A DNA stretch of 58,048 nucleotides, the filler included, from Bipalium vagum (lineage: Eukaryota): NCBI GenBank assembly GCA_037834085.1. It is 3 parts of 3 records of this genome, joined end to end, with 100 filler letters (N's around TTAATTAATTAA, not from the genome) between each part and the next. Parts side by side here need not be neighbours in the genome. Positions count along the whole stretch, not along the records: positions 40,873 to 58,048 come from JBBMKC010075926.1; 2 more parts are not named here. One strand, written 5' to 3'. Below, in pieces: positions 2,116 through 58,048 of the stretch. Positions within the stretch are counted from its first letter, which is position 1; every line of letters begins with the position of its first letter. Below the pieces are notes generated by a model. It saw nothing but the letters and a program-made list of their open reading frames with translations, made no database searches and was not told the DNA's origin. The translations under genes and the position numbers were made by a program.

Positions 2116-4209
2116 TTATTGGTAATAATTTAATATCTGTCTACCGAACATTTCTTCGATCCATTTCTTAATTTCCGTTTCCGAATAGTTTTCCATTTTC
2201 ATTGAGCTTGGTACGGTGTTCCAATCCGTTAGTGATTCCCTGGCCAGCCTCATGCTTCCAGCAATGCTCTCCTTCCAAGACAGATTTTTCTTGAATTTCA
2301 AGTAAAGAGAACAGCTCGCTAAACAGTCTCCTGCTCCGCTAGTTTTGATTATTTCCTTTTCCGAAATAAAAGCTTCCGATTGTTCTATGAAGAACATTTC
2401 CTCTCGCGAAGCAAGAACCACACCCTCCGAGCCCAATTTTATCATCCACGTCGGTATGAGGTCTAATAATTTCAATTTGGTAATAATTTGTTTTATATAA
2501 TCAAAATTCGATTGCTGTTCGACTTTTTCAATGTTCAATTGAAAATGTGGGCTCTTGTTGATTGTTTCAACGATTTCAATGAATTCGAAAATGTTTGGAG
2601 AAATAATATCGATGGGAAACCGAAGGTCTGTGAGCTTGTCCACTATTTTCAAGGGTTTGTGGACAAGCAAAATATCCGTAGGTTCTACGAATATTTTTAT
2701 TCCCCGTTTTTTGGCGTATTTTATAACTTGTTCCATGGCTTGCTGCGTTAAATTACAATCAACGCAAATCAGCGTAAGATGATGTATGATGTCTTCTAAA
2801 TGATTTTTCAGATAGTCCCAATTTATCTGGTGAAAAATTGATAAACTTCCCACATGAAACAAGATCTCACTGTTCTGGCATGACAAAATGGAACAATTTG
2901 CCGTTTCGTAAGCGTCCGTGAAATGAACTCGAGAAAAATCAAGAGAACCGGAGTTGTTGATTATATAATCACCATTGTAGTCCTTACCAAGTGCTGAGAG
3001 AAAGTAACATTTCTCATTTAATCTATGGAACACCTCGGCTAGATTTCGTCCAACTCCGCCGGATGTTATTTTGGTCGTACAATCATAGGTACCCCTAGGG
3101 GTTATCGTTTGTAAATCGACTACACCAGAATCTTTAATTATCTGGTTACTGTCTACAATGCTCCCTCCAATTACGGCAAATTGAGATTTTTCTTCGGAAA
3201 TTATTTTTTCTTTATCTATTATACTTTTTTGTTTTAATTTGTGATAACCCTTTGCTAATTTTGATGCCACGCGAACATTGTTCTTAATGAGTTCCATGTT
3301 TAACATTAATGATTTTCCGCTTGTCAATACGTTGATCTCGTTCAATACAAACGGAGTGACATGAGAACCCTTCATATTATTTAATTTGGCTTTTTCTAAG
3401 CTCTTACCAATTGCTTCTTCGATCATATTTTTTTCTTTTTCTAAATTGCTCGGAAAAGGTATTGCTACCAGCATACCTGAGCCCAATTTTATTTTGCTCA
3501 TATTTTGAATGGTCTCAGCAATCCGGCTGATTGATTCCAGATTGTTTGGTGATTTGATCCCGTTCGACAGAGAGAAGAAGCTTGGGAAATCTGTGGAACC
3601 TAAAGAACAGACAAATACACCCTCAGTTTCTAAATACTCTAAAGTTTTTCTAATATCAAGAAAAGATTTTATTCCTGATGATACAACACAGATCGGCGTT
3701 CTTCCTAGTTCCCTTAAATCGGCACTAATATCCATACTTGTTTCTACATCCCTATGAACCCCTCCGATACCTCCTGTACCGAAAATATTAACACCCAACA
3801 TATGAGCTGCAATCATTGTACCCGATACAGTGGTACCGCCATATTTCATATGTTGACACATGTAAAAATTATGTCTGGACACCTTAAAAACTTCATCTGG
3901 TCTCTTTACAGAGCTTGCCAATTCCTCCATTTCAAAATGCGTAAATCCGGCTTTTATTTTTCCATTCATTACGCCTATTGTAATGGGAGTGACCTCTTCT
4001 TCTTCAGCTATTTTTTCTAATTCCAAGGCCAGTTGAAAGTTTGTGGGCCATGGCATTCCATGAGTTATAACTGCACTTTCTAAGGCAATGACAGGCCTGT
4101 CTTCGTGAAGCGCTTGAGATACCTTTTCAGTTTTGACAAATAATTCATTTATTAATGTGGAACATTTTCTCACGAAAAACCTTTTCGTCTTGCCAACATT
4201 TTGCCACAT
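2116..4209 (-). CDS. Bifunctional pseudouridine-5'-phosphate glycosidase (PsuG/IndA-like) + PfkB-family pseudouridine kinase, 697 aa, single exon
   Basis: N-domain motifs: VIALESAVITHGMPWP, GGTTVSGTMIAA, GTGGIGGVHR, DISADLRELGRT, SGIKSFLD..TLEYLETEGV, VTPFVL. C-domain PfkB motifs: GGVGRNLA, LGKD..G, EPTD, SPN..E, KLGSEG, TSGAGD. Uninterrupted 2094-nt ORF, with AATAAA overlapping the stop codon. Confidence 0.95.
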   Translation of the reverse strand: MWQNVGKTKRFFVRKCSTLINELFVKTEKVSQALHEDRPVIALESAVITHGMPWPTNFQLALELEKIAEEEEVTPITIGVMNGKIKAGFTHFEMEELASSVKRPDEVFKVSRHNFYMCQHMKYGGTTVSGTMIAAHMLGVNIFGTGGIGGVHRDVETSMDISADLRELGRTPICVVSSGIKSFLDIRKTLEYLETEGVFVCSLGSTDFPSFFSLSNGIKSPNNLESISRIAETIQNMSKIKLGSGMLVAIPFPSNLEKEKNMIEEAIGKSLEKAKLNNMKGSHVTPFVLNEINVLTSGKSLMLNMELIKNNVRVASKLAKGYHKLKQKSIIDKEKIISEEKSQFAVIGGSIVDSNQIIKDSGVVDLQTITPRGTYDCTTKITSGGVGRNLAEVFHRLNEKCYFLSALGKDYNGDYIINNSGSLDFSRVHFTDAYETANCSILSCQNSEILFHVGSLSIFHQINWDYLKNHLEDIIHHLTLICVDCNLTQQAMEQVIKYAKKRGIKIFVEPTDILLVHKPLKIVDKLTDLRFPIDIISPNIFEFIEIVETINKSPHFQLNIEKVEQQSNFDYIKQIITKLKLLDLIPTWMIKLGSEGVVLASREEMFFIEQSEAFISEKEIIKTSGAGDCLASCSLYLKFKKNLSWKESIAGSMRLARESLTDWNTVPSSMKMENYSETEIKKWIEEMFGRQILNYYQ

Positions 4210-4375
4210 GAATGTTTAGTTTTATATAAAACTTAATTATGAAAGTTTCGAATTTTTTGGTTCATGAACTTTGTCATTTGACCTAACCGAATAAACTTTG
4301 ATATTTGTAATTATATTAATTTCAAATGGTCATCAATTTTATGTAATTAAAATTCAGATGTAATCAAAAAATATT

Positions 4376-40872: not shown

Positions 40873-40940
<68 letters not shown>
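40873..40940. repeat. (AAT)n microsatellite at contig end
   Basis: Direct reading. Confidence 0.97.
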
Positions 40941-40942
<2 letters not shown>

Positions 40943-41595
40943 TTCAATAATAAAATTAATTTAATTATGAAAATCACACTTTTAATTAATACTAATAATA
41001 ATGACAATAATTCCAAAAAAATAATAAATATTATCTAATCTCTACAATTAGTACCAGTGTGTTAAAAATATGCTTTTCTTTAGTTAAAGGGGGAATGTAT
41101 TTCCTATGATGAGCGATTGGACAACAATCGAGTAAACAACTTGCCAATACAAATATATAAATACGGGGGTTTTCTACGAACTGTCGAGATAATTGTTTTG
41201 GGAGATCGTTTTTAAAGTTTTAGAAAAGTTGAGAAAAATCCAAAGATCTTATTTATTGAATATCAAAAGTATCAGAAAAATGGTTTTTAAAAATTTCATT
41301 TGTTCAATTTCACTGTCAGAAGATTCATTAGATAACCGTTATTTTCTTCTCAAGAATTGGGCCGTTTTTATGATTTTTTGGTTTGATTTATTATTTTTTT
41401 GACTCGTATATTGCTTCGTGATAATTTTTATTGAGTGAAATTGTGAATTTTCTTTTATACAACTAAGGTTTATTGTGATTATTTTGATTCATATAAGAAA
41501 ACTTTAATAAAAATAAGTGAATGGTGATTAAAGTTTAAGATTATAACTTAACAAATGTTAAGGATAATTAATTATAAAAATATTACCTCACTTAT

Positions 41596-42500
41596 GTTGG
41601 GTTGGCCAAAGGTACAAACCATGAAGATCGTGAATAGTAATGATCTAGGTCGCTTCGCTAGATCATTATATATAGGCTGACCAACTCCCTCAAAAGGCAG
41701 TGTAAATAATAAAAGATTCATGAATAAACAAAGCGATCAGCAGTATATTTGTTATCACAACTGCAAGATTTGAAATCTAATTCACACTCAATATTCAACA
41801 ATAAAAACAATAAGCTATTTAATTAATAAAATACTTTGTTGAAGAAGTCCTGTTAACAAAAGTTCATATTTTGTCGCCTAGAGCGAAGCAGAATTGAAGT
41901 ACCAAAAGAAGAATAAAAGAATATAAGATAATATTAAAAAGTTAGTGATGAAAAGAATCTACTTCTATCACTAAATAAACCTTAATTAATTATTTATTTT
42001 ATCGGTTAAACACTTTTGGAATTAATACAAATTCCTTATCTATTATTATTACCGGAGTCTTAAGAGCTTTTTAAATAGATATCAAATCGTATTCAAAGTT
42101 GTTAAGGGCATCTTGAATTGAAAACTAAGAGTTTATATATTCCTATTTTCCACATTCTAGAGCTTCTCATTGGCTGTATTCTAACTTATTAATAATAAAT
42201 TTATGTGTGGGCGGTTTTTATTTGAGGTAAGTTTTACTTCCTAATAATAGAGTTATGGTGGTTACTTTTTTAAATAAGTTCTTTTTTTTAAAACTTACAA
42301 TATTTAGTAATTTTACTCCCACATCCTTTATTTCATAAATTTTGATAATAATAATTAATCACGTTGGTCATATTTTTAATTAATATTTTAAACTCACATT
42401 TTATATATTATATTTAAAAAATTATATTATATTTTAACATTATTATTTATTTATAAAATGATAATTTTTAATTATTTTAAACAATATTTTCACATATAAA
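41596..42500 (-). mobile_element. Solo-LTR-like element with intact-looking Pol II promoter
   Basis: Minus strand order: CCGCCC (~42210), GCCAAT (~42172), TATATAAA (~42135). A terminal TGTTGGG sits at 41596 and there is strong A/T skew. The right boundary and TSD were not resolved. Confidence 0.4.
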
Positions 42501-42849
42501 ATATAAATTCACATTCATTTCTGAGAATTATTAAAAATAAGAAACTAGGCTTTACAAAGCCTTTTCATGCACATTAATTAATGTAAAATAAAATCAAATA
42601 TCAAATGGAAAAATGTTCCAATATCGATTATTAATTTCGAAAGCTGTCATCACTCTCCATTGGCTCTTAATGCTCCTTGATATTGTCAGCGATTTTCTTT
42701 CTTGGAGGTTTGTGTTGGTTTAGTCTGATTTTTTTTACCAGCTTTACTTTAGATCCAAACAATATTTTAATAATAAATATTAAAAAAAGCAATATATCAA
42801 AATCTCGTCATCGAGAAAATAATATATAGCTTCATTAATTATTATTTCC

Positions 42850-43667
42850 TGAAAGAAGATATGTCCCGTCATGGGGACTATAATTTTTTTAATAAATTAT
42901 TTTATCGACTATTTTATCTCGGCTGGAGATTAATGGCTATAAAGAGACGGCCATTCTTAAGAAGCCACCCAGAAAACATTGGAAAATTAGAGAAGATTAT
43001 TTTCAATACAGTCGCAAAGAGTGGATTATTTTCAGGATAGTCGTTACAGTTTCCAAAGAAGAAGATCATCGCTGTTTTAGTAATTTTCAATTATTTTCAT
43101 TTATGTTGATGATGACGATGCAAACTGATTTACCAAGGGAGCCCAGTGAGTTTGGAAATCCCTAGGTGAATTGAAAAGGACCTAGAGGACGACCCAAAAG
43201 CCTCTTGTCGCTCCTGATGAGGTTGTTATTGATTTACTTTTATTTTCTTTTTGTGATTTATTCTATATTCTCATAAATTGTTTCATTATTATATTACATT
43301 CATTTCTGATCATTTAATATTAAGGAAAGTTGACTTATTATTATTATATTTTTATTGACATTGGATCACTGGGTCTCGTAATTTATAGAAACTTAATTAT
43401 TTGACAGATTGAGATTTTTGTGTGATGATTTTTTTGTGTTTTAATGAAATTTTACTGTGATCGTTTTGATTCAATTTGGGGAGCGAATAAGGTTTTATTG
43501 TGGATTTTGATTCAATTGAGTTTAAATTTGTGTAACAGTAAAAGTGAAGCGAATAAAACATTAGAAAGTGAGAAGTTATCGATTTTTGAGCGAAAGTTAT
43601 TTGTTTCAAGGTATAATAACACTTACAAAGATTTATTTTGTGTATTAGTAAGACTCCGGCCTTTACA
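42850..43667 (+). mobile_element. Solo LTR-like element A
   Basis: Termini TG(-)AAAG...CTTTACA, TATAAAG at ~42938 and AATAAA at ~43552. Shares hairpins and an ~90-nt block with 47595-48627. No clean TSD. Confidence 0.6.
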
Positions 43668-45830
43668 AAATGAGTTAAAATTTGTGATTCATTGAATAAA
43701 TTAAATAAGTGTCATATATTACTTGTAAGATTACGTCAGAATTCAGGATAATTCTATTGGAAATAATTACTTAGAAGGTGCAAACTAGGAAGTCTTGCAA
43801 CACCAGTCATATTCACCAGATATTGGTCCTCCGGTGTTCCATTTGTTCCGCTCAATGCAATCCTCGCTTCTTGAGTTCCGATGAAGACCTTCAAAAATAG
43901 ATTTCTTCAAAAGAACCAGATTTTTTTTCTTGAATTCCATTTGTTGCCCTAAAAATGGTCCTGAAAAAGTGTTCCTCCTTCGACTAAGCTCGTTTATAGT
44001 TAGAGCACATTTTGTATTTCCTTGCAGATCCAATATAGTTTTATTTGACTTTTAAAAACTTATTTTTGATTGTAATGTGAGTTCTTATACATTTAAAAAA
44101 ATTCACTCTTATTAATAACACAAGACTGAACTTATTATTTCTTTCTTTCCGCATCTAAAAGGCATTCTACAACGAATTTCAATCATTCAAATCAAAATCG
44201 TACAGTTCATGGAACTAATGGAGCTTTTGCACTCATTGTGAATATTAAAATGTATCAGAGAATCATTTATTCTTTTTCTTATTTGGGCTTCCAAAGTGAG
44301 TTCAATTAATAAATAATTATTTTTGACCATTTTTATTGCCTCTTCATTTACAATTCGCCTCAAAAAATCAACAAGAGGACAATTTTTAAGTAACCATCTC
44401 TCGTAGTTAAAAATATCTTCGAAGTGTTCACGCTGATTTTTTTTCTAATTTCTTTTAGCAAGGTCGCGAAAATCGTTTTGGGTATTTTCCGTTAATTTTT
44501 CTTATTACTTATTAAAATTTGGGCATGGATTAGCCCTTATTTTTCATTTTTGTTAATTATAATCTAAAAAAATTGTCTAGGAATTTAAGATATATCCACG
44601 TGGAAATATGTCTAGGTAATAAAAATAAAATAAAAATCAATTCATTTACTCATGAAAATCAAATTTCCAGTTAATTAAAACATTTTTAGATTTAATTTAA
44701 CTTTGCAATTTGTTTTAATTAATAAATAATTTTGATTTACTTTAATGAATATTTTTCTGTTTTATCAAAACCGGAATATAAAATTTGTTGAACATTTCAT
44801 TTGAATTTCATTTTATTTGTTTGACATTTTTACATTGGTTAATTTATGGATAAAACCGTAAATTGATTTATTATTTAAAACTTTGACTTATTGTTATATT
44901 TAATGTCATTAAATTAGATATTTAATGGTTTTATTCAAATATAAGATAAGAAATATTAAGAAAACTTTAGGTTAATTCAATAAGAAAAATGAAACATTGG
45001 ATAAACTTCCGTATTTCTTAATAAAATATTTAAAATAAAATAAAATAATAAAATACCCTATTCGAAACTTTTTTGTGCTTTAAGTGATCTTACTAAAGGT
45101 AGACTAATTGAAGGTTGCTGATTTAAAAAATGATATTCATTGCATCACACCAAATTTCTAAGATACCTGACTATTTAATAATATTAACAATGTTAATTAA
45201 AAATACAAAAGGAATTTGTATAAATGTTTATTGAGACATGATTTTGCAGAAATTTCTCTTTTGCAACGTTTTTCAGACAGCAGCAATAATGTTGCTACTG
45301 TCAGTTATTGATTATTCTTTTTATAACCGGAATGTCTTAGTGAAATCTTTCACCTTGTTCTTCGCTATAATCGCCACAATTATTCGGAAAATACTCCAAA
45401 TGGGAGTATCATAAAATGAACTTTGAGACTCATATTGCATCTTAAAACCTTGAATACTTGTAACATTATATGTACAATATCTTCATAATTGATTCGTTTG
45501 ATGTTATCCTTGAAAGCTAATCACTTATGTTTTTCATTTTCTATCATTTTTGTAACGAAATTTGAGTCTTACATGAAACGTTTTACGTCTAACACTGTAA
45601 ATATTCCTGCTAAAAGTTTGTCGCTTGTAATTTTTTATTTTTTATTTTCCCCATAATGAATATACGGAAATTTTTCTTCAAAGAGGAGGGAAACGTAGGA
45701 AATATATTCAGAAACATTTAGTTAAATTGTATAGCAATATACATATGTATAATATAATATTACTGTTACGTAATATATTTTTATTTTAAAATTTTGTTTA
45801 AATAAAGGTGATGATTTATTAAGTTAAGAA

Positions 45831-46772
45831 ATGATTAGACTTGTCATTGCTTTGACCATCTCACTATTTGCTGCTGTCCAAGGGGTAATGACAATTTTAA
45901 AATTTTGCTAAATTATTAAAACTATTTTCAGTTTTCTGGAATAATATTATTTATTTCATCTCTTGTTATGCTTATACCTGCCACTATGACTCCAGTCATG
46001 GAACCAAATAGTCCATTTGTGATAATCTTCCTAACGATAATATGTGTTTCTTTATATAAGATCGTCAACTCTATAATCGTTCTAGTGGCAATGAAAAGAA
46101 GGAGTTCCCTTATTTTAAAGATAGGCGGAACAATGTTAATGATTCTGCTGATATTTAAGATCACTGTTGCTTCAGGATACCTTAGTAAAGGCATTGAGGT
46201 TTGATTTTTCTTCCTGGAAATCAAGATACTTACTTAATTCTAGATGGAACCGGAAATCGAAAAGTTTCTCAACGATTCAGTTGCAGATAAAATAATGTAC
46301 AAATCATCAAACCTTCTCAGACCGGCTGATATAATCCAATTTTCCGTTCGTTTTGGTGTTATTGAATAACTAATTTTATTACATTTTAGTTTAAATGTTG
46401 CGGATCGGTAAATTACAATGATTACAAAATGTTAAAGGAAGAATTGCCCAAATCATGTTGTCCATCGTTTGGAGGCTGTGACAAGATGGCTGTGAAGTCG
46501 GACATGCCAGACTTGGTAAATAATTTTAATAGAATTAATATTTATTATCAATTAAATCTATCATTTAGAGAACTGGATGCAAAGATCCAATCTATACACT
46601 TTTGTTTCGAAAATCAAATTTGTTAATTGCTCTTTTGGGAGCATTTCTTTTGTTGCTGGACGGGACATTCGTCGGACTTTGTTTGGGATTTCCCTTTAAA
46701 AGAAACCCAATACAAAATGAAAACTTTACACCGGTTAATATCCTCAATTCAGAGTTATCATCCGTCGTTTAA
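45831..46772 (+). CDS. Tetraspanin, divergent, 5 exons, 250 aa
   Basis: Exons 45831-45884, 45932-46198, 46244-46345, 46390-46515 and 46569-46772. GT-AG introns of 47/45/44/53 nt, all phase 0. Four TM segments, and EC2 with DIIQFSFKCCG, LPKSCC, C and TGC (6 Cys). AATAAA directly follows the stop. Confidence 0.92.
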
Positions 46773-47594
46773 AATAAATCAATATTTTTGAGGTAGAATA
46801 ATAAATTTTATTATTATTTTTATAATAATTATTATTTCTATTATTTAATTGAAGTCAAGTTTATGACACAAAGATAGGACCAAAGTTTAACATTAAAACA
46901 AAATTAAGAATATTTTTCAGTCTCATAATCATTTGTAAGTAACATTTCCTATGGTTTTCTGATAATACTAAATTAAAGCAGCGTTAAACATTTAATATGT
47001 AAAAGGTAATTAGTGGTATAAATCGGGCCAGGATAGTTCACGAGCGTAAATCTAGAGAATCCAACAAATTAGAGTTAATAGGAACGACTGAGCCACAAGA
47101 GAACAATAACATTCTCTGAAATGTGGTCTCTTGAAAAAACTCCACTTTACTTGAATGTTTCATATTTTTTTTTGTGCTTCGGTTAAACAATCATTAAAAA
47201 GCAACTAGAATATTTTTGCGGAAATAATTTTTTTCTTTTTTTGCGGAATTGATTCGCACAGAGTATACAAAGCTGGGCTTTGTATGTACCCAACTTGATT
47301 CAATGGTTTTAGTGTGAGCACCTGTTTCACATCATTCAAATTAATGGAATGATTTTAATGATTCAAGCAATTAATTCAAGCAATTTTATGACCTCAAATA
47401 GTATACATTCACACACAGCAATCTCTGTAAAGCAGTTTTTGACATAGTTGACATACAGAAAAAAAAGTGTGACGTTACTGATTTTGTTACAGTGAAAATT
47501 AAATTTTGTTATTGATACTGTTATTGGTATATGTACCTTTTAAAAAATTACGTTGAGTTACGGTACAATATTTATATATAAAAGTTTTATCTAA

Positions 47595-48627
47595 TAGAAA
47601 TGTTGGGTTTTGGAGCAATAATAATGAGGATAATAATAATAGTAATGGTAATTATAAAAAAATATTAAAAATATAATAATTAGTTATAATAATAAAAATT
47701 AATTATATTATTTTGTTTTGCAATTTAATAATAACAATAATAATGATAATAAGAATTTTTAAATGATAGTAATAGGAATAATAATAGTAATTTTTAATTA
47801 ATAATAATAATAATAAAAATTTTCTTTACTAAATAATTTTTTTAAAATAATTTTTTTGTCATTTTCATAATGACAAAATCCCGCCGTGGGGATTTTTCGG
47901 CAGATTAGCTAATGGATTCCCTGATAGAATTCCATTAGCCTTGATGAGACTATCTCGGCGTAGAGATAGTTAATGACTATTAGGGAAAATAACCGTCTCT
48001 AAGCGTAGGGATTGGTGATCGTAGACCAATCTCTACGACTATAAAAGAAGATGACTATTCCCGTCAATTTGCACAAGAACGCTGTCCCAAAAACGTTAAT
48101 ACGGAGAACGAAAATTCGAGGAAGCACCAATCTACGAATTCAGAAGGATTACGAGCCGAAGAAAGGATCTCAAGGTATTTCAAGTGGATATGACTACGCA
48201 GGAGAATTCTACAAGGGGACCCAGCGAGCTTGGGAACCCCTAGCGACCTGAGAAGGACCTAGAGGGCGACCCGAGGACCCCTTTTCGCTCTTTGTGAGAC
48301 CGATCCATTTACTTATTTTGTTTTTGTTTTCTTTATTAAATTATTGATTTGATTATATTTTTCTTTATTATTAACGTTGTCATTGAACTTGATTTTATTT
48401 CATTTTATTCGATAATAAATTTTCGGTTTTGATTTGAATTGATTTTGAAGTTGTAATTGTTGTGATAGAGTGAATAAAGTTTTATTTTAAGTATTTTGAT
48501 TCATTTCCTAAGGATGTGGATACGGCATTGTGGCGGGTGTTTTGATTCAAAAAGGTTGAGAGGAATTACGGACACAACGATTTTTAAAAAGTAAGGAGTC
48601 ACGAGCACACGATCACACGTTACTACA
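47595..48627 (+). mobile_element. Solo LTR B (~1.03 kb) of an LTR retrotransposon
   Basis: 5-bp direct repeat TCTAA at 47590-94 and 48628-32. Termini (TG)TAGAAATGT...ACGTTACTACA, with the 5' TG apparently lost. TATAAAAG at 48040 and AATAAA at ~48413/48473. The 5' half is A-rich and the 3' half T-rich. Confidence 0.7.
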
Positions 48628-48726
48628 TCTAAGTATAATAGTAACAGAAATCAGAAAAATAATTAAAAATATGAAATATGAAAATAAAGAATATAAAATT
48701 ATATTTCAGAACATTAGAAATATTTT

Positions 48727-49320
48727 TTAATTACCATCTTTATCTGAGTAATACCTCGCGATTAATAACAGAGAATCTTCAAGAATTAAATCATTCATTA
48801 TATTTCTTCTAGCTGATAGGATCCATTTCAAAATAGAAAATAATCTCTCCACAGAAACTTGTGTTCCTTGTACGACAAGTACTATTTTCGCAATTTTGGC
48901 TAAAATTTCATTTTTTCCAGACTTATTCCAATAATCTAAAATATTAATAGTATCACTTATCGAATGAATTTCTGTATCTCTAAAATCATTAAGCATCTGA
49001 GAAATTTGATTTTCTTTAATATTCTTTGACTCAGCAAATGATGATAATTCTTGGTGTATATATCTTGGTTTAAGTTTTGCTAATTTTAAATTTTTTCCTC
49101 AATTTGACGAATAATATTTGAAAAAACAATTTTCCCCGGAAAAATTAGCATTTCACTAGACAAATCAATATTTTCTTTCAAATTATCTATATTTGCATCA
49201 ATTATAGTTTTCAACGATACATTTTCTATATGATAGTAAAGTTTAGCTAGATTTTGTTTTCAGATATTTTCAAAAGACTAGAAATCTTGAATGTAGATAT
49301 ATGCCTTTATCTTGTAAGCG
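48727..49320 (-). mobile_element. hAT transposase C-terminal (dimerisation domain) relic
   Basis: ILDYW..LAKIAKIVLVVQGTQVSVERLFSILKWILSARRN.M...LE is the hATC signature. Confidence 0.88.
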
Positions 49321-49499
49321 TCTTCCAATGATTCTAATTTTTAAGATTTGAATATTTAAACAAAATAATTACATAAAGTTTTAATTGTAACGAAATTGGA
49401 ACAAAATTAAATTTTCATTTGGTTAAAAATAACGTTATTTGGCTAAATTGAAAATTTGGTTACCGGTGCCAATAAAGTTATAAGGAAAATTGGGGATTT

Positions 49500-49886
49500 T
49501 GCGTTATTGTGTTTCGTTAAAGTAACGGTATGCCAACTGTGGTTTTTTGTTGAAAAAAGAATTACAGCACTGGAATATCCTCCATATTCCCTGATTTATC
49601 ACCCTCTGATTTTTTCTTTTCCAAAAAATAAAATCTGTGGTAAAAAAACTCGTTTTGAGTCATTAGAAGCTGTTAAAAAGAAAACCGAAATGTTATTAAA
49701 ACAGTAGTCAGAAGATGAACTTCAACATGCCTTCAACCAATGGAAAATAAGAATGCTTCGATGTGTGTCTGCCAAAGTAAAATATTTTGGAGATAGATTA
49801 TAAATGTAATGGATTAAATAAATGTATAAATATTGAATATAAATATTCTTTTTGATCCAGTCTCGTTACTTTATAGACAGACCATA
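49500..49886 (+). mobile_element. Mariner 3' fragment (irritans-like)
   Basis: LEYPPYS.., RFESLEAVKK and FNQWKIRMLRCV. TIR CAGTCTCGTTACTTTATAGACAGACC followed by TA. Confidence 0.8.
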
Positions 49887-50203
49887 TATATTAATAATTT
49901 TTGTTCCAGGTGTAATCAATTCCATTTTTTTATAAATTTTTTAAAAAATATTTTTAATTTTTTAAATTTTTAGAGAAAATTAAAACAGAACAATCTGAAA
50001 AATGTTTTATATTATATTAAATGGCATTTCATTTTTTTATTATTCAAAATCAACCTTGTTGTACGAGTATCAAACTTCACTATGGTTTATGATTGAATTA
50101 TGTCCAACTTGAAAGAATTCCCACGAGACACAATTTCTCAAAACATTGGAGAAATGGAATTAGATAAATCACAGTAAAATCTTTATAAACATTATTTACA
50201 AAG

Positions 50204-51251
50204 CTACACAATGGCAGAACCTTTTTCTGGTACTGTATTGAGCTCAGTTGGAGCAGAAGGCCTGCTTTTTCTCAGGGATCCATTGGGAATCATTAGAGGT
50301 GGATCATCAGCTGGTAATTTCTTCATATATTTTTCATTGAAGATGGACCACAGATGACAAATAACCTCTGCAGTGATAATGTCACCAGCATTCAAAGACA
50401 TCATCCTCAAAAGAAACACTCCATCACGACGAAGAAAACATTTGGTAAAAGTGTCAACCAATTTTCCATGGCCGGTGTCGGAAATTGTAATTTTTTCATT
50501 TAAAAACAAAAATTTCCTGATGAAAGAACTGTTCTGTTTCATAACACAAATTTTTCTGAGCCATTGCACCAAACTCAACACATTTACAATACTACAAAAA
50601 AGGATCCAGTGCCAAAGAAAAATGTATATTTTCTCGTTTAACATGTTTATGGGCAGAACGCACTGAGCCATGACAGCGTTGGTTTTCGTTCCCAAATGTC
50701 TGATTTTGGCATAACAGAATGCCACTCGGGGAAAAATGAGAGTGACCTGCCAATCTTTTCCGTTGATTAAATTGTTCAATACTTTAATTCCAAAGAATGA
50801 AAAACTGTCAAAGCCCAAAAATCGTTTCATCAAAAACAGCTGACCGACTGCATTTGCAATGTATAGTAGCTTCATAATGAAATATCCAAGAACAACGAAA
50901 TAACCCATACGTCTGAGAGCTATACAGAGTGAGCAATTATTATAAAGGTGTTGGACGAAGCTTTTTCTTTTAGAATTTTTGTCAGAATGCTAAAGGTTTA
51001 CTTTCATGAATTGGAAAGCTAATTGAAATTATTTAAGACCTGAACTATCATTTGTTCCAGAGTTCTGGCTAGATAAGAAGTCATCCTTTCTCTTGTTTCT
51101 TCATTAGAATGCACGGCCTGGTTAGCACCATCTATCATGTGCTGGATATCGGTTCCTGCTTGATTGTGGCAAAACACAGTCCAGATTATTCGAGGAATGT
51201 GGAATAGAATGCACTGAAGAGCAAGCACAAAAGGGACCCATTGATAATACA
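50204..51251 (-). CDS. Innexin (gap-junction protein), last two exons; 5' exons not found in the window
   Basis: Exon 51251-51040 (acceptor gatag, YYQWVPFVLALQ...MIVQ), a 50-nt phase-0 intron at 51039-50990, then exon 50989-50204 with NAVGQLFLM..FLG, FPRVAFC, QCVLPINMLNEKIYIFLW and FLRRDGVFLLRM. Confidence 0.95.
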
Positions 51252-53715
51252 CTATCGTCAATAGATATTCATGTATTATGTAATTAATCATTGTAAGAAA
51301 TATAATAATAATAATAATAATAATAATAAATTGCTAAATAAAACCATTGGTTAACATTTTTGATTGAAAGATTGTTTTGAAATTTAATTTTGAAATTGGT
51401 TTTTGTTCACCAAAAAATTTTAAGTACCTTTGGTCATGTTTGAAGTCGTTTTTGGAAAAGTAAGGATCTTTAGAAGTAAGTCATTTCTACGTCACATGTT
51501 TCCTAGTAACTGGTCACTTTTAATCATTATTAATAAATCAATGTAGTTTTCAGGAACAGTAGCGCCTATTAAATACTGTATCTAATCTTTTAATCTCCTT
51601 ATTCTCTATATATCACCTGTCTTCTCAAACCGAAAATGAACCCTAACTTTTTCTATTTATGTTTTGATAAAAAGTTTTCATCACTTTTCTCATCTTGCTC
51701 AAAAGTTTGTTTTTTATTTATTTATCATGTTGTAATAGACTTGTGACAGGAAAAAATAATAGACCCAAGGTAAACCTTAACATGTACTAGGGGTTGAATC
51801 AAATGTGGAATTGAACCGGAGTCAGTATAGAATTAAATGATTGAAAGAAAAGTAAGAAAATATAACTAATTGCTGGTGATGGAGTGACCATGTTAACAAG
51901 AAAAGACATTTTTATGAAATAAATAATAAGTTAATGCAGAAGAATTTAGAGTGAATATGAATAATTTTGATAATATTTATGAAATGAGATTTGCATATCA
52001 TTATTAATAAAAGATCGACAATCTGAGATTAACATATTCAACTGGAGAAAATAAAAATTAATAGATTTTCCTGATTAATTTTAAAATATTATTAAAAAAA
52101 GTTTTTAATAAAACAGAGGTTGAAATTCGGTTTGGCCTTCTTTTGTTTAAACGGGAAATTTAGAATTTTTAATAAGTTTTTAAAAAAATTTGTTAATGAG
52201 AATGTTTTATAGTTCTCTTCATGGCTACAATTATTGATTTTAACAAAGATTACAATTTATTTAGAATTTCTAAGGTCATGAATACGGTTTGTAAAATACA
52301 AACTTGTAATACGAAAGATGTAGCATGATTGGAAAATATTAAAATTGTTATTATTATCAAAATTTGACTATATATGGTTTGAAAACCTTTCGTTCAATTA
52401 CATAGTTGATTGAAAAAATATGGAACATATCTTCCTTTTTTGGATATGATGGAGTCATTATATTTTTGATATCAAATATATTTTATTCACATTTTAAACA
52501 CAAAATTTGTAACAATCAATAATCAGATTCCTGAAGAAGGCTGTTACCTTGTAAATAAATTATTTAAATAAAAATTAAGAACTTAAGTAATATTATAATA
52601 TAAAAATTGAAAGATTATTTTATTTCAAGTTTAAAATAATTATAATTAGTCCATTAAAACAAAATGAGGTCTAACCCAATTTAATCCCAGCCAGAATTTG
52701 ATAAAATATCTTAATTAAAAATGATACTATCATTTAATTGATTAAAATGTATAAAATCAAATATTAATGACTGAAGACTGGTAAAGTTCGAAAGACATAT
52801 CATAATAATGAATGTTTAAACTGATTTTGTTGTCAAATGACAAACATTATGTACTTGAAAATAAATTGATTTGGTTCACAATAGTAATTTTTAAAAATAC
52901 ACTATTTACTAAGTGTCAGGATTATAAACGGGCATTTTGGTGGTACATGTTTCGCATGCAGTTTTATTAAATAATGAACAGAAAAATGAACAATAAAAAA
53001 TGGCAGAAAATATTTGGCTTATTTATATTCAAGTATTTTACAGAACTTATGGACACATTTGTAAAACTTGAAACGGGAACCTAACAAATCAATTGAAATA
53101 AAATAAATTTAAATTTAAAAAATCTTAATTTGCTTCTTAAAAGTTTTTTAATATTGAATCTTTTGAATAAAATTTTTAAAAAATGTAAGAACATCTTTCA
53201 AGAAGTCTACAACAATACAGCAAAAAATTAAGAAAATTGTCAAGGTCATTTTTTTGTAAAAGTTCATGTAAATAAATATGAAAATCTTTGAAAAACAAGT
53301 CTTGATTTCTTTGTAAGGTAATTTTGAGATATTTTTATAGAAATAATAATTCAAAAATAACAGTTGCAAGGTTATTATTTGAAAATAAAAATAAAGTACA
53401 TTTGTTCTTGAATAAAAACCTAATCAATATTCTGCATGATAGAAGTTATTAATATTCAACACAAACGTTTTTTCCTGTAAAATTTTAAATAATCCATTAA
53501 ATTAAAATTTTCATTTATTTTTCTTTTATTCATTATTAATAGTTTGTTTTAATCGTCTTAGTGGAAAAGTATTTTATTAATAAAAATTTTTTTATTATTA
53601 ATATTTTTAACTATTATAATAATTTAAATATATTTTTTATAATTTTAAAATATTTTTTAAAAGGTGAATAATAAAATTTAATGTATCACCTTTTCTGTGC
53701 GATAAAACAACAATA

Positions 53716-53850
53716 TGACTGTGAGATAAATTGAAAATTAGTCTGGGGATGTAGCTCAGCGGTCAGAGCAGTGCATGCGCATGTGAATCTCCGGTTAATT
53801 TTCACTAACAATGACTAATATCCTCGGTATCTTAGTACGCCTTGAATCTT
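53716..53850 (+). mobile_element. tRNA(Ala-like)-derived SINE-like repeat (internally deleted copy)
   Basis: A 29-nt leader is followed by GGGGATGTAGCTCAGCGGTCAGAGCA (tRNA 5' half, A-box). It matches the copy at 32640-32970 and has no complete cloverleaf. Confidence 0.65.
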
Positions 53851-55472
53851 TTTACTATCGAATTAAATTCAAATTACAAGTTGAATTACAATGCAGATAA
53901 CCGTCACGAATTCTCCAGTCAATCCAATGTCAATATTATTATGATTCTCTATACTTGGAACACCATTCGGCAGTCCATTAGATGAACAATATTGTTATTG
54001 TGATAATTTAATGATATTTATTCAATTTAGAAGACAACCAATTTTCATTTTGGAAACGGGCTGAAGATAGGAAATGCTTGTTACTTTGGAAAGTCTTTGT
54101 CTTCAGTAAGTTCTTGACTTGATTTACGATTTTTTGTATTATGTTTTTAATGGAAGCTAAATTAAAACCCTCCAAAGTTTGCCAAAAAGATTTGCAAGGC
54201 TTATGGCAATCAAATTTCCAGATGTGTTCTTAATTACCGATAAAACTATTAAAAAAAGTCTCGCCTTCTTGAAACTCTTGAATAGTAATTGTTGTACAAT
54301 TAAAGATATGTTGCACAAGGTCAATGAAGTTTAAAAACATTTTAGGTGACTCGACAAGAATTTATCAACATTCAGAAACAAAGATCATTTGATCAAGCTA
54401 TTGTATTTATTAAATATTTAGGAGCTTTTGTGATAAACCAAACAAAATTTTCAGCGAGTGTTTCCTCCTTAAGTATATTTTCAGGTAAAAATGATGTCAA
54501 GTTTCTCTATTTCTTAAAACTTGAAAAGATTATAAAATAGAACTAATTATATATTATTACTATTATTATATATTGATAAAAATGTTTTTCTGTCTATCCA
54601 AAATCATTGATATTATTAATAATAATATTTTATAAATCAATAAAAATGTGACCTCCACAAGGTCTGGAAGTATATAGCTCTATATTATTTAATATTCGAT
54701 TTTATCGAAAGGATTTCTACGGGGTATTAATAAATTATAATAATAATTAATTATTAATTTTTATTATAATATTTTTATTATTATAAATACGATCGCATAT
54801 TATTAAAATTTAAAAGAAATTTGATAATATATAAAATATATATTTTATATATATATACATATATTTTATTTATTTATAAATATTTTAATGAAAATGAATA
54901 ATGTTAAAGAATATTTTAAGAATTTTTTCTTTTAAAAATCTCCTAAGACTGAAAATGAGTCTTAACATACTCTCCTAATTTTTTAAAGCAAAATATGAAA
55001 ATTTTGAAAGAAAAATGTGACTCCACTTCTACACCTGTCCAGAATGGTTGAATTGAAAAATTTTCCCATTTCCAGAAGTCCATTAAAATATTTGTTTGAA
55101 CAGGTTAGCAAATAAACCAAACGTTCTGTTAACGTTATAAAAACAAAAATACTCAGAAATAACTTTGTCCTCCAATAAGGTGGTATTTGTATTATTCATT
55201 CTTCCAAAACCAACTGACAAGAAGTGTTCCTATTTATTTTCTAGAGTTACTTTCTTGAACTTTAACATTTTCTGGACATTCTTATGACTTTTGCTGATAA
55301 AATCTTAGGACAACATGAATGTATATTTATTTAGTGTAAAAGAAATTATGGTGTTTATGTTGTACGAATATTGTTTTATATAAATCAATTAGTAAATATT
55401 GAATATTACATCAATTGGTAACGTTAACTTTTGTATGTTTAGTAATGTTAAATTTATTTATCTTACATTTTT

Positions 55473-56705
55473 TCAGGTTTATGCATTGAAAGTGAGCCTT
55501 TATTTTACAATATTGTATCTTTATTTAATAAGTAATATAAATATTAAGTAAATAAAAAACGAAAAAGATAATTTAGTAAAAATAGTTTCTATCATTAATA
55601 ATACCTTTCCACATTTTTCAGAAAGCTAATGAATTCTTAGATAAAAAAAATCGGAATCTTTGATAACTGTCCAACCAGTGAACCAGTTTTCAGCTTCCTC
55701 GAAGGATTGGAAGTGCTTCTCGGAAAGTGAGTGTGCCATCGACATAAATAGATGGTAGTCAGAAGGGGCGCAGTCTGGTGAATAACCTGCATGTGATAGC
55801 ACTTCCCATTAAAGCAACTCTAACGTTTTCTGGACTCGTTTGTTGACGTGGCCGGGCGTTGCCATGCAGCAAAATTACTTTGTGCTGCCTTTTCTCATAT
55901 TTTGGTCTTTTTTCGCGAAATGTTGGGTCAGGTGTATTAATTGTTTTCGGTACAACTGTCCTGTAACTGTTTCACCTTGCTTTATCACCTCATGATGGAT
56001 CATATCCCCTTGGTCCCACTAGTTGCTCAGGAGAGCCTTTTCCCCATGAATATTCTTTTTGGGTGTTGCTTTGAAGGGCTGTCCGGGATCGCAATTTTTT
56101 TCTGCTTTTTTTGTCGAGCAATCAAAATTTCACTTGTGACTACGTTTTTCCATGTCGTTCATCTTGAGGTCGTGTGGTACGCATCTTACTACTTGTATGC
56201 CTTTCCAATGGCCTTTAGACGTCGACTAATTAAAGATTGAGAAGCATTTAATGATTTAGGTAGATCAGTTTGAGTTTGGCACAAATCTTTAGTCAACAAT
56301 GCTTCCAGATCTTGATCTTCAAACTCTTCTGCTTGTCCTTGGCGCTATTTATCTTCCACCATAAATTCGTTCTTTCGAAAACGTGAAAACCATCTTTTGC
56401 AAGCGATTATTGATAAATCATTGTCCTCATAAGCCTCGACAAAGATTCTGTGAGTTTCTGATACAGATTTTTAATAACAAAATGAAATAAGATTACTTTT
56501 CACAAATATTGCTTATTTTGTATATAAACTGTAATCTAAAAAGGATAAAAATAAGATATAGTTAAAGATATCAGAATGTATTTTTATAGATTATTTTTGA
56601 ACAATGTATAAACAATATATATATTCAAATAGTGATTTAAACAAATGAATAAATTTTCTTTTTATAGATATTTAAAAAAGGCTCACTTTCAATGTTTATA
56701 CCTAA
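55473..56705 (-). mobile_element. Near full-length decayed mariner, mauritiana (Mos1)-like
   Basis: TIRs TCAGGTTTATGCATTGAAAGTGAGCC and rc TTAGGTATAAACATTGAAAGTGAGCC. Minus strand LLHGNARP and LSHAGYSPDCAPSDYHLFMSMAHSLSEKHF (cf. Mos1 LPHAAYSPDLAPSDYHLFASMGHALAEQRF). Confidence 0.9.
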
Positions 56706-56829
56706 TTAATTAAATTTAAGCTCTAAAAATCATTACATGCCAAAAAGGTAAATTTGCTGATTTTTTGATCGAGTTCAAATTGGAAGCTGAAACTACTCAG
56801 AAAATGTATTATTAATAGTTTTATACCAA

Positions 56830-57988
56830 TAATAAGCGTACAGTGCTATGTTGATCAACACACAAAATCAGCTTTCTATGTAACTACATACTATTTCCAG
56901 GCACTTTGTCCATCGATTTAAAAATGAAAATGACCAGTTTTAAAGAAAGAAAGATTTTTTCCTTGAAAAGATCTTGTACGAATCTTATTTTTCTTCCTTG
57001 TACTCTATTTATGTTCTCGTAAACAAGAAGAAATCACTAGGAGAGAGGTGGTGGGTGTGAAACTAGTACGAAGTCTATTAGGGATTACATCCATAGTTAG
57101 ATAAGTTGTGTGAGCTGCAGAGTTCTGATGTAAATGATGAAGCACTTGATTCTTTAGTTTCCATAGTAACTTTCTTACAGAACTAAAAAGTTTGCAGTAG
57201 TAGGTTGAGTAGATAATCTCAGGAGTAAAGTCAGTCTTTATCACACATTTTGCATACAAAAACACACTAACCATGAAACATGCCCTATAAGATATCTATG
57301 AACGAGGCGTTTCCGGTGGTCTTTTCTTCTGGAAAACCCTATTTACAAGAATCACACCAGTTGTATGGAACATATGGACTCGATCGTGTTTCATCCTCCT
57401 TTATAATATTATGTTAAAGAGCATGGTCAGATTTTCTTGGCACACTTCTATTCGCTTTTCTCATATATCCGCTGTCAACAAACATGGAGGAATCTACTGC
57501 ATAATTTTCTGATTCCAAACGCTCTTCAGCATATTTTATACGGTCTTCTTGATTAAATTAACTCTAATAGACAGCTCTGTCTGGGTAATTCGTCTGTCTT
57601 CACAATTATTTCTTATTCACAATTATTTCTTATTTTTTATTTATTTCACAATTATTTTTATTTTTAATTTTTTGAATTTTGTTCCTGCGAGAAGAAACTC
57701 TCTGAACCAACAATAAATAATAGTCTTTTATGGAACTTCATTTCCATATGCTTCTTGCATCTGAAAAAATGACCCTCTTTTTTGTCCTCCTCAAAAATGA
57801 AAAACGGATAATTCTTTGAAATTCATCTTACTGGTCCCTTTTTATAAGAAAGCGCCGCAAATAATTTATTTCCGGTCATTGTTTAAAACAAATTCAATAA
57901 TATTTGCTTATATACTTTTTATGTAGAAAATCTCATTGACTTCCTAATTTTCTGAGCAAGTCTAATGACTTTTTATGCACACCACATA
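56830..57988 (-). mobile_element. Decayed mariner (irritans-like)
   Basis: Minus strand NIIKEDET (cf. ITGDETW), MVSVF and LHQNSAAHT (cf. HHDNAPAH). A TIR-like end ..GACTTTTTATGCACACCACA lies at ~57986. Left boundary approximate. Confidence 0.75.
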
Positions 57989-58048
57989 TAAAAAATAATA
58001 AATAATGATTAGTAAAGGGTTTGGGTGGAAAATTGTATAATTTATAAT

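Follow-up and report, generated by a model that had tools for sequence, protein, structure and literature searches.

A block of some 90 nt in the genome of Bipalium vagum is the conserved part of two solo long terminal repeats (LTRs), A and B, of one abundant retrotransposon lineage. Both lie in the window analysed here, a stretch of 58,048 nt joined from three parts of assembly GCA_037834085.1, of which positions 40,873 to 58,048 come from record JBBMKC010075926.1. The block is a real, lineage-restricted LTR element. Besides three predicted hairpins described in a first-pass annotation, it is associated with a 17-codon open reading frame (ORF) that this annotation overlooked. In both LTRs the ORF spans hairpin 1, and its stop codon, TAG, is part of the CTAG that closes hairpin 2. 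In each LTR it is also the first frame opened by an ATG past the point, 30 nt downstream of the TATA-like box, at which transcription would begin. The coordinates of all features are collected in the table below.

The identification of the two repeats as solo LTRs is borne out by their ends and by the 4-bp target-site duplication around each single LTR, and both are larger than had been implied. Their termini read TGTT...AACA, which are TG...CA ends with short inverted termini, and the 9-mer TGTTGGGTT has two occurrences in the window, both of them at LTR starts. Because each has a separate target duplication, A and B are not the two ends of one element. At 48646, the end of LTR B, 100 contig pieces from DNA run X1 continue into unlike sequence. 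No retroelement-like ORF was present among the 14 ORFs scanned (17 were listed), and no six-frame scan for decayed retroelement genes was made.

Positions 43134-43254 and 48212-48327 share 74% identity across 121 nt (E 4e-14, search within the window). Ungapped identity between A and B is 25/31 and 42/57 in the block, as against 15/60 before it and 22/60 after it. The claim that 43134-43222 and 48212-48298 align while the remainder of the LTRs barely does is thus well founded. When LTR B is followed in 40-nt steps, the four steps at 48200-48260 exceed all 20 locally shuffled A regions with the widest margins, whereas five other steps exceed them narrowly and the step at 48280 fails to do so. 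By these sequence comparisons the block is the best-conserved part of both LTRs. A model built from both copies detected none beyond these two in the window, its next-best match scoring 12 bits (E 0.096). The notion that the block is a copy of an exon 1 at the tail of an intron was ruled out, as neither LTR contains a second copy.

The same DNA run indicates that the block is common. On a 104-nt stretch of block B fall 656 contig pieces, and the summed depth peaks at about 41,000, compared with about 20 for single pieces, a value that does not convert to copy number. The eight long records listed each depart from block B at 7-12 letters and have 1-2 gaps against it. Among the 15 joints listed of 234, four, comprising 8 contigs, connect the TATA region to the block via unlike spacers, which suggests that several LTR families retain both.

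The TATA boxes and downstream AATAA sites reported earlier were found at the places given, and ATG is depleted downstream of the TATA box. In LTR A, 7 ATGs are observed where 13.4 are expected (P 0.0095), and in LTR B 2 where 7.8 are expected (P 0.004), the ORF starts being included in both counts. There is no depletion of the reverse triplet CAT or in the upstream parts of U3. With the ORF excluded, a step taken only after it had been seen, ATG is the most depleted of the 64 triplets after the TATA box (4 versus 17.1 expected). Windows over the two leaders rank 2nd and 4th of 184 for ATG depletion. A further ATG at 48051 lies 11 nt past the TATA box of B, upstream of the presumed transcription start, and is missing in about 88% of the local depth. 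The ATG pattern fits a scanned + strand 5' leader that keeps one upstream ORF (uORF), and the depletion past the TATA box makes it likely that the block lies in the transcribed region, as had been proposed.

Between A and B the ORF has 5 synonymous and 7 non-synonymous codon changes, with no gap, no stop and equal length, the best result of the six frames. Its lone third-position changes are synonymous in 5/5 cases. This has consequences for the hairpins, which had been described as covarying. The stems and the GAAA and GAGA loops are located where they were drawn, but only one of 25 pairs is compensatory, while one is changed on one side, six are broken in one copy and one is gapped. The single compensatory change is a synonymous third position of the ORF over hairpin 1. 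Together with the TGAG/CGAG loop change it falls at synonymous Asn and Ser positions. A lesson of the present case is that an isolated "compensatory" substitution in the hairpin of an LTR may equally be a synonymous codon change. Furthermore, one CT (43162-63 in A, 48240-41 in B) is needed by the outer stem of hairpin 1 and by the base of hairpin 2 alike, so that both cannot form as drawn.

Variation among the other copies speaks differently of hairpins 2 and 3. Of the 7 broken or gapped pairs, 4 are retained by the letter that is common in the other copies (the remaining 3 are not among the variants listed), and the two window copies therefore look decayed. In copy A the 5' strand of hairpin 2 contains the ORF stop codon, and its upper stem is decayed; in copy B hairpin 2 is one base shorter than in most other copies listed, all eight of the long records listed being gapped relative to B. 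Between 48237 and 48274, a C-to-T variant is listed for 5 of the 13 C positions and a G-to-A variant for none of the 12 G positions (one-sided P 0.024, in a test picked after the data had been seen), whereas over the full 6.2 kb both kinds balance (114 versus 137). An excess of C-to-T without G-to-A is expected if G-U pairs are tolerated on the + strand. The earlier idea of a selected RNA structure thus gains indirect support for hairpins 2 and 3 and loses its argument from covariation.

Short ORFs beside structured leader elements are a known retroelement device, and the reading that we tentatively favour, at slightly less than even confidence, is that the block is a uORF-plus-hairpin control element in the 5' leader RNA which sorts this RNA between translation and packaging. 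Transcription would start about 30 nt past the TATA box. Scanning ribosomes would reach the ORF and translate it, unfolding hairpin 1 on the way, and would terminate within hairpin 2. Translation of the uORF would damp the downstream translation of gag and open the stems, and in RNA that is not under translation hairpins 2 and 3 would stay folded and serve as a handle for Gag or for dimerisation. The closest parallel is found in Rous sarcoma virus (RSV), where, in the available text of PMC5035971, the stop of uORF3 is closely followed by the three stem-loops of the 82-nt psi, and a role in balancing translation and packaging is proposed for the uORFs. In both cases an LTR retroelement carries in its 5' leader a short uORF that ends next to an 80-90 nt three-stem element, here a predicted fold. 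The present ORF, in contrast, overlaps hairpin 1, and the likeness is one of layout, with none to be expected in sequence.

Several points weigh against this reading, in addition to the two choices made after the data had been seen. The packaging-handle step has the analogy with RSV uORF3/psi as its sole basis. RSV psi lies 3' of the primer-binding site and outside the LTR, whereas the present ORF stops 456 nt (A) and 403 nt (B) before the LTR end, and this position inside the LTR means that the block is not a member of the RSV uORF3/psi family. In RSV itself, blocking translation reduces packaging by only 25%, and translation of uORF3 is not required, according to the portion of PMC5035971 available. 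With regard to structure, the pair-change score between A and B is equalled by 241 of 500 shuffles, the folding z-scores of the block are -2.77 in A and a weak -1.17 in B, and the two natural copies are predicted to fold differently, A mostly into hairpin 1 (hairpin 2 about 0) and B mostly into hairpin 2. A single variant at 48249, making up about 4.5% of the depth, disrupts a pair of hairpin 2. With regard to the ORF, the synonymous excess is not significant (P 0.084 alone, 0.055 with the condition of no stop), the ATG-free stretch ahead of it would not stand out on its own (P 0.27 and 0.30), and a window at the U3 start of LTR A ranks 5th of the 184 for ATG depletion. Lastly, the variant tables are unphased and come from a single DNA run, X1, possibly the source of the window itself.

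Other predictions for the fold are as mixed. RNAalifold recovers hairpin 1 alone from the pair of copies. Hairpin 3 of B competes with a long-range pairing of the purines at the block's 5' end with the hairpin-3 loop (0.2-0.4), and, as to a main stem that would close around the three hairpins, a long-range pairing has a predicted probability of 0.4-0.6 in B but 0 in A. The idea that the hairpin-3 loop forms a pseudoknot with the sequence next to it on the 3' side was rejected, since by eye it suits A and not B.

The same conservation could reflect a purely structural packaging or dimerisation signal, with the ORF a by-product of a conserved ATG motif and of the TAG in CTAG; the self-complementary CCTAGG at the junction of hairpins 1 and 2 would then pair two genomes. 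Such a signal would account for the conservation that extends 57 nt beyond the stop (42/57) and for the variants of other copies, which mostly keep hairpins 2 and 3, and the ORF statistics are borderline. It leaves unexplained why one ATG frame is retained in an ATG-depleted leader and why the 22 nt from the ATG to the block are free of gaps at a mere 12/22 identity, and the CCTAGG palindrome sits in a stem rather than in an exposed loop. We regard this explanation as unlikely, although it deserves to be kept in mind.

It may also be that no special selection on RNA is involved, and that the block is a promoter-proximal element acting at the DNA level or a GC-rich segment that recombination has passed from one LTR family to another, and merely looks conserved. 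The absence of covariation, the identity of most positions and the roughly equal folding of the two strands are consistent with this idea. The variation is strand-asymmetric, however, ATG is depleted on the + strand, and contigs join the block to the TATA region via several unlike spacers, all of which argues against a single exchange and a purely double-stranded signal and makes this explanation a rather improbable one.

Within the uORF reading, the peptide itself could matter. The ORF would then encode a sequence-dependent stalling peptide ending in Gly-Asn-Pro-stop, at which a paused ribosome refolds the adjoining hairpins, yielding a translation-driven switch between translation and packaging across LTR families. 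We hold this to be quite doubtful; if true, the LTRs would encode a stalling-peptide switch that several of their families within one animal lineage have conserved. Related possibilities were rejected. The 2A stop-go motif is DxExNPG-P, and the ORF, which ends in PSE(F/L)GNP-stop, lacks it. A +1 frameshift at CCC-TAG would meet a stop one codon past the shift site in A, and a Gag start in or read-through across the block is ruled out by the three frames of A, which all close within or just past it.

A second known use of short leader ORFs is the ribosome shunt. In the accessible parts of the cited papers, shunt ORFs end some 6 nt short of a large stem (PMC2241666), the coding sequence of the shunt ORF of cauliflower mosaic virus (CaMV) is dispensable and the large stem is bypassed (PMC2241666, PMC2761275, PMC5902531), and the shunt ORFs of prototype foamy virus (PFV) have 3-4 codons (PMC2761275). 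What the present element has in common with the short ORF-stem shunts of CaMV, rice tungro bacilliform virus (RTBV) and PFV, as these sources describe them, is a long retroelement leader in which a 5'-proximal short ORF runs up to a structure (PMC2241666, PMC2761275, PMC5902531). The present ORF, in contrast, has 17 codons, its stop lies within the 5' strand of the small hairpin 2, and no large stem follows: 90-nt windows after the block have z -1.3 or weaker, except for the last window in B (-2.35). As modelled, then, the block does not place its stop about 6 nt before a large stable stem and is not a shunt of this kind, and a leader depleted in ATG fits scanning rather than shunt bypass.

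Downstream of hairpin 3, the GTGAGA of LTR B has prompted a further explanation, in which a 5' splice site there either recruits U1 and so keeps the 5' LTR's poly(A) signal suppressed, or starts an intron in the leader, in the manner of foamy viruses. In the available text of PMC3694450 there is a foamy virus precedent, and the likeness consists of a donor-like site upstream of a poly(A) signal in an LTR. The B site lies about 180 nt before an AATAAA occluded by a hairpin and is followed by a T-rich, AG-free tract, the next AG being 150 nt away in B and 101 nt away in A. The GT is, however, present in only one of the two copies and absent from A, no U3-dependent refolding is predicted at the site, where accessibility hardly shifts when U3 is included (B 0.22 versus 0.22; A 0.46 versus 0.38), and these two facts weaken the explanation. 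An AG-free tract is also plausible by chance in T-rich sequence, on a composition estimate, and no intron-loss joint is found among the 15 joints listed of 234. Taken together, a splice-site role seems distinctly improbable.

The suggestion of an undescribed self-cleaving ribozyme could appeal to the high identity and to the conserved C-rich 13-nt loop with its possible tertiary pairs, of which one long-range pairing occurs in B. It found no support and is in our judgement very improbable indeed. The first-pass annotation could match the module to no known family; in Rfam, too, no family fits (best E 1.8, none at gathering score), and the core motifs of hammerhead, twister and hepatitis delta virus (HDV) ribozymes are not common to both copies: CTGATGA occurs at 43214 in A alone, and the rest of the hammerhead core is absent. 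Cleavage 170 nt into the leader would, moreover, strip the cap from an RNA that looks scanned.

Searches outside the window agree with a restricted distribution. Pattern scans returned 0 matches for five patterns and 1 for a loose pattern in viral contigs, and 0 matches with 11 for the loose pattern in metagenome contigs. None of these 12 loci extends past the pattern (best nhmmer E 0.17), and the top model scores among them (18.7 bits) belong to GC-rich palindromic repeats that match in either orientation and that the pattern itself had selected beforehand. There is thus no homologue of the block outside this genome in these viral and metagenome scans. The block appears to be undescribed, no description having been found in literature whose coverage excludes Repbase and most subscription journals. 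As to the elements that carried it, the available portion of PMC12471100 describes Saci2-like Ty3/gypsy elements of flatworms, with TGT...ACA ends, 4-bp target duplications and LTRs of a few hundred bases, and that portion does not contain the words hairpin, secondary structure or uORF. Burro elements, likewise flatworm Ty3/gypsy, are high-copy and have long LTRs, according to the accessible text of PMC6431247. The present elements, known from their LTRs alone, share the TGT...ACA ends and the 4-bp duplications with the Saci2-like group and differ from it in LTR length, at 2027 and 1046 bp.

A block of 90 nt with a short ORF, kept in many copies while LTRs of 1-2 kb diverge, would be a compact and statistically tractable case, and the block would serve as a marker to group LTR families that otherwise cannot be aligned. 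To our knowledge, the division of invertebrate LTR retrotransposon RNA between translation and packaging has been little studied outside yeast.

Table. Features of the two solo LTRs; hairpins are predicted and decimals are predicted pairing probabilities unless stated otherwise.
Feature	Position	Strand	Remarks
Solo LTR A	41595-43621	+	2027 bp; 5' end TGTTGGGTT, 3' end TAACA; target duplication CTTA/CTTA
Solo LTR B	47601-48646	+	1046 bp; 5' end TGTTGGGTT, 3' end TAACA; target duplication GAAA/GAAA
Upstream hairpins, LTR A	42803-42816, 42863-42878, 42916-42930	.	related to those of B; z -5.6
Five upstream hairpins, LTR B	47875-48037	.	upstream of TATA; z -4.7 and -6.3
TATA-like box, LTR A	42938-42944	+	from sequence, putative function; ATG depletion begins downstream
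TATA-like box, LTR B	48040-48046	+	from sequence, putative function; ATG depletion begins downstream
17-codon upstream ORF, A	43112-43165	+	MTMQTDLPREPSEFGNP-stop; extra in-frame ATGs at 43103, 43109, 43118
17-codon upstream ORF, B	48190-48243	+	MTTQENSTRGPSELGNP-stop
Hairpin 1, copy A	43136-43163	+	ORF codons 9-17; 0.9-1.0 bar one broken pair
Hairpin 1, copy B	48214-48241	+	inner stem 0.3-0.5, outer stem about 0.15
Hairpin 2, copy A	43162-43185	+	GNRA loop, GA bulge; unformed in the fold of A
Hairpin 2, copy B	48240-48262	+	0.83-0.96
Hairpin 3, copy A	43186-43214	+	13-nt loop; upper 4 pairs 0.95-0.99, lower 4 pairs 0
Hairpin 3, copy B	48263-48291	+	13-nt loop; 7 pairs at 0.43-0.47
Splice-donor-like GTGAGA, B	48294-48299	+	follows hairpin 3; weak; counterpart in A is ATGAGG at 43217
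AATAAG in small hairpin, LTR A	43486-43499	+	candidate poly(A) signal
AATAAA in small hairpin, LTR B	48473-48486	+	candidate poly(A) signal; predicted unpaired fraction 0.02

The strongest hairpins of the LTRs are not those of the block but lie upstream of the TATA box, with stronger folding scores, and had been overlooked. Four of these stem-loops have a G-N-C-R-T-N hexaloop in common on differing stems. In the window this pattern has 372 loop matches, of which 7 have a stem of at least 4 bp, and these four account for 4 of the 7. The common variants listed for the upstream hairpins of B keep the pairs. In the genomic RNA these hairpins would lie at the 3' end, and a covariation test may be better directed at them.

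The U3 of LTR A is about 900 bp longer than that of LTR B and may contain an insertion. Near the 5' end of LTR A, a perfect 11-bp hairpin with CTAG in its stem (41638-41668) has no counterpart seen in B. At the other end of the LTRs, the sequence TTTTGATTCA occurs twice per LTR in connection with the candidate poly(A) signal (43464 and 43505 in A; 48494 and 48540 in B) and is a candidate cleavage or downstream element.

The remainder of the window is AT-rich animal DNA, and its named protein relatives are at most 39% identical, which marks the host as a divergent animal. Other high-depth repeats lie beside LTR A (43622-43880) and between the LTRs (46740-46946), and a fragment of a hAT transposase dimerisation domain (48727-49098, - strand) is found 80 bp past LTR B. 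A broken tRNA-like stretch at 53742-53795 (GGGGATGTAGCTCAG...) was recognised by eye and has no Rfam match at gathering score. A stop-free frame of 699 codons (2116-4215, - strand) encodes a fused pseudouridine glycosidase-kinase, with more than 40% identity in two unnamed relatives only, and an innexin gene of at least two exons occupies 50204-51333 on the - strand.

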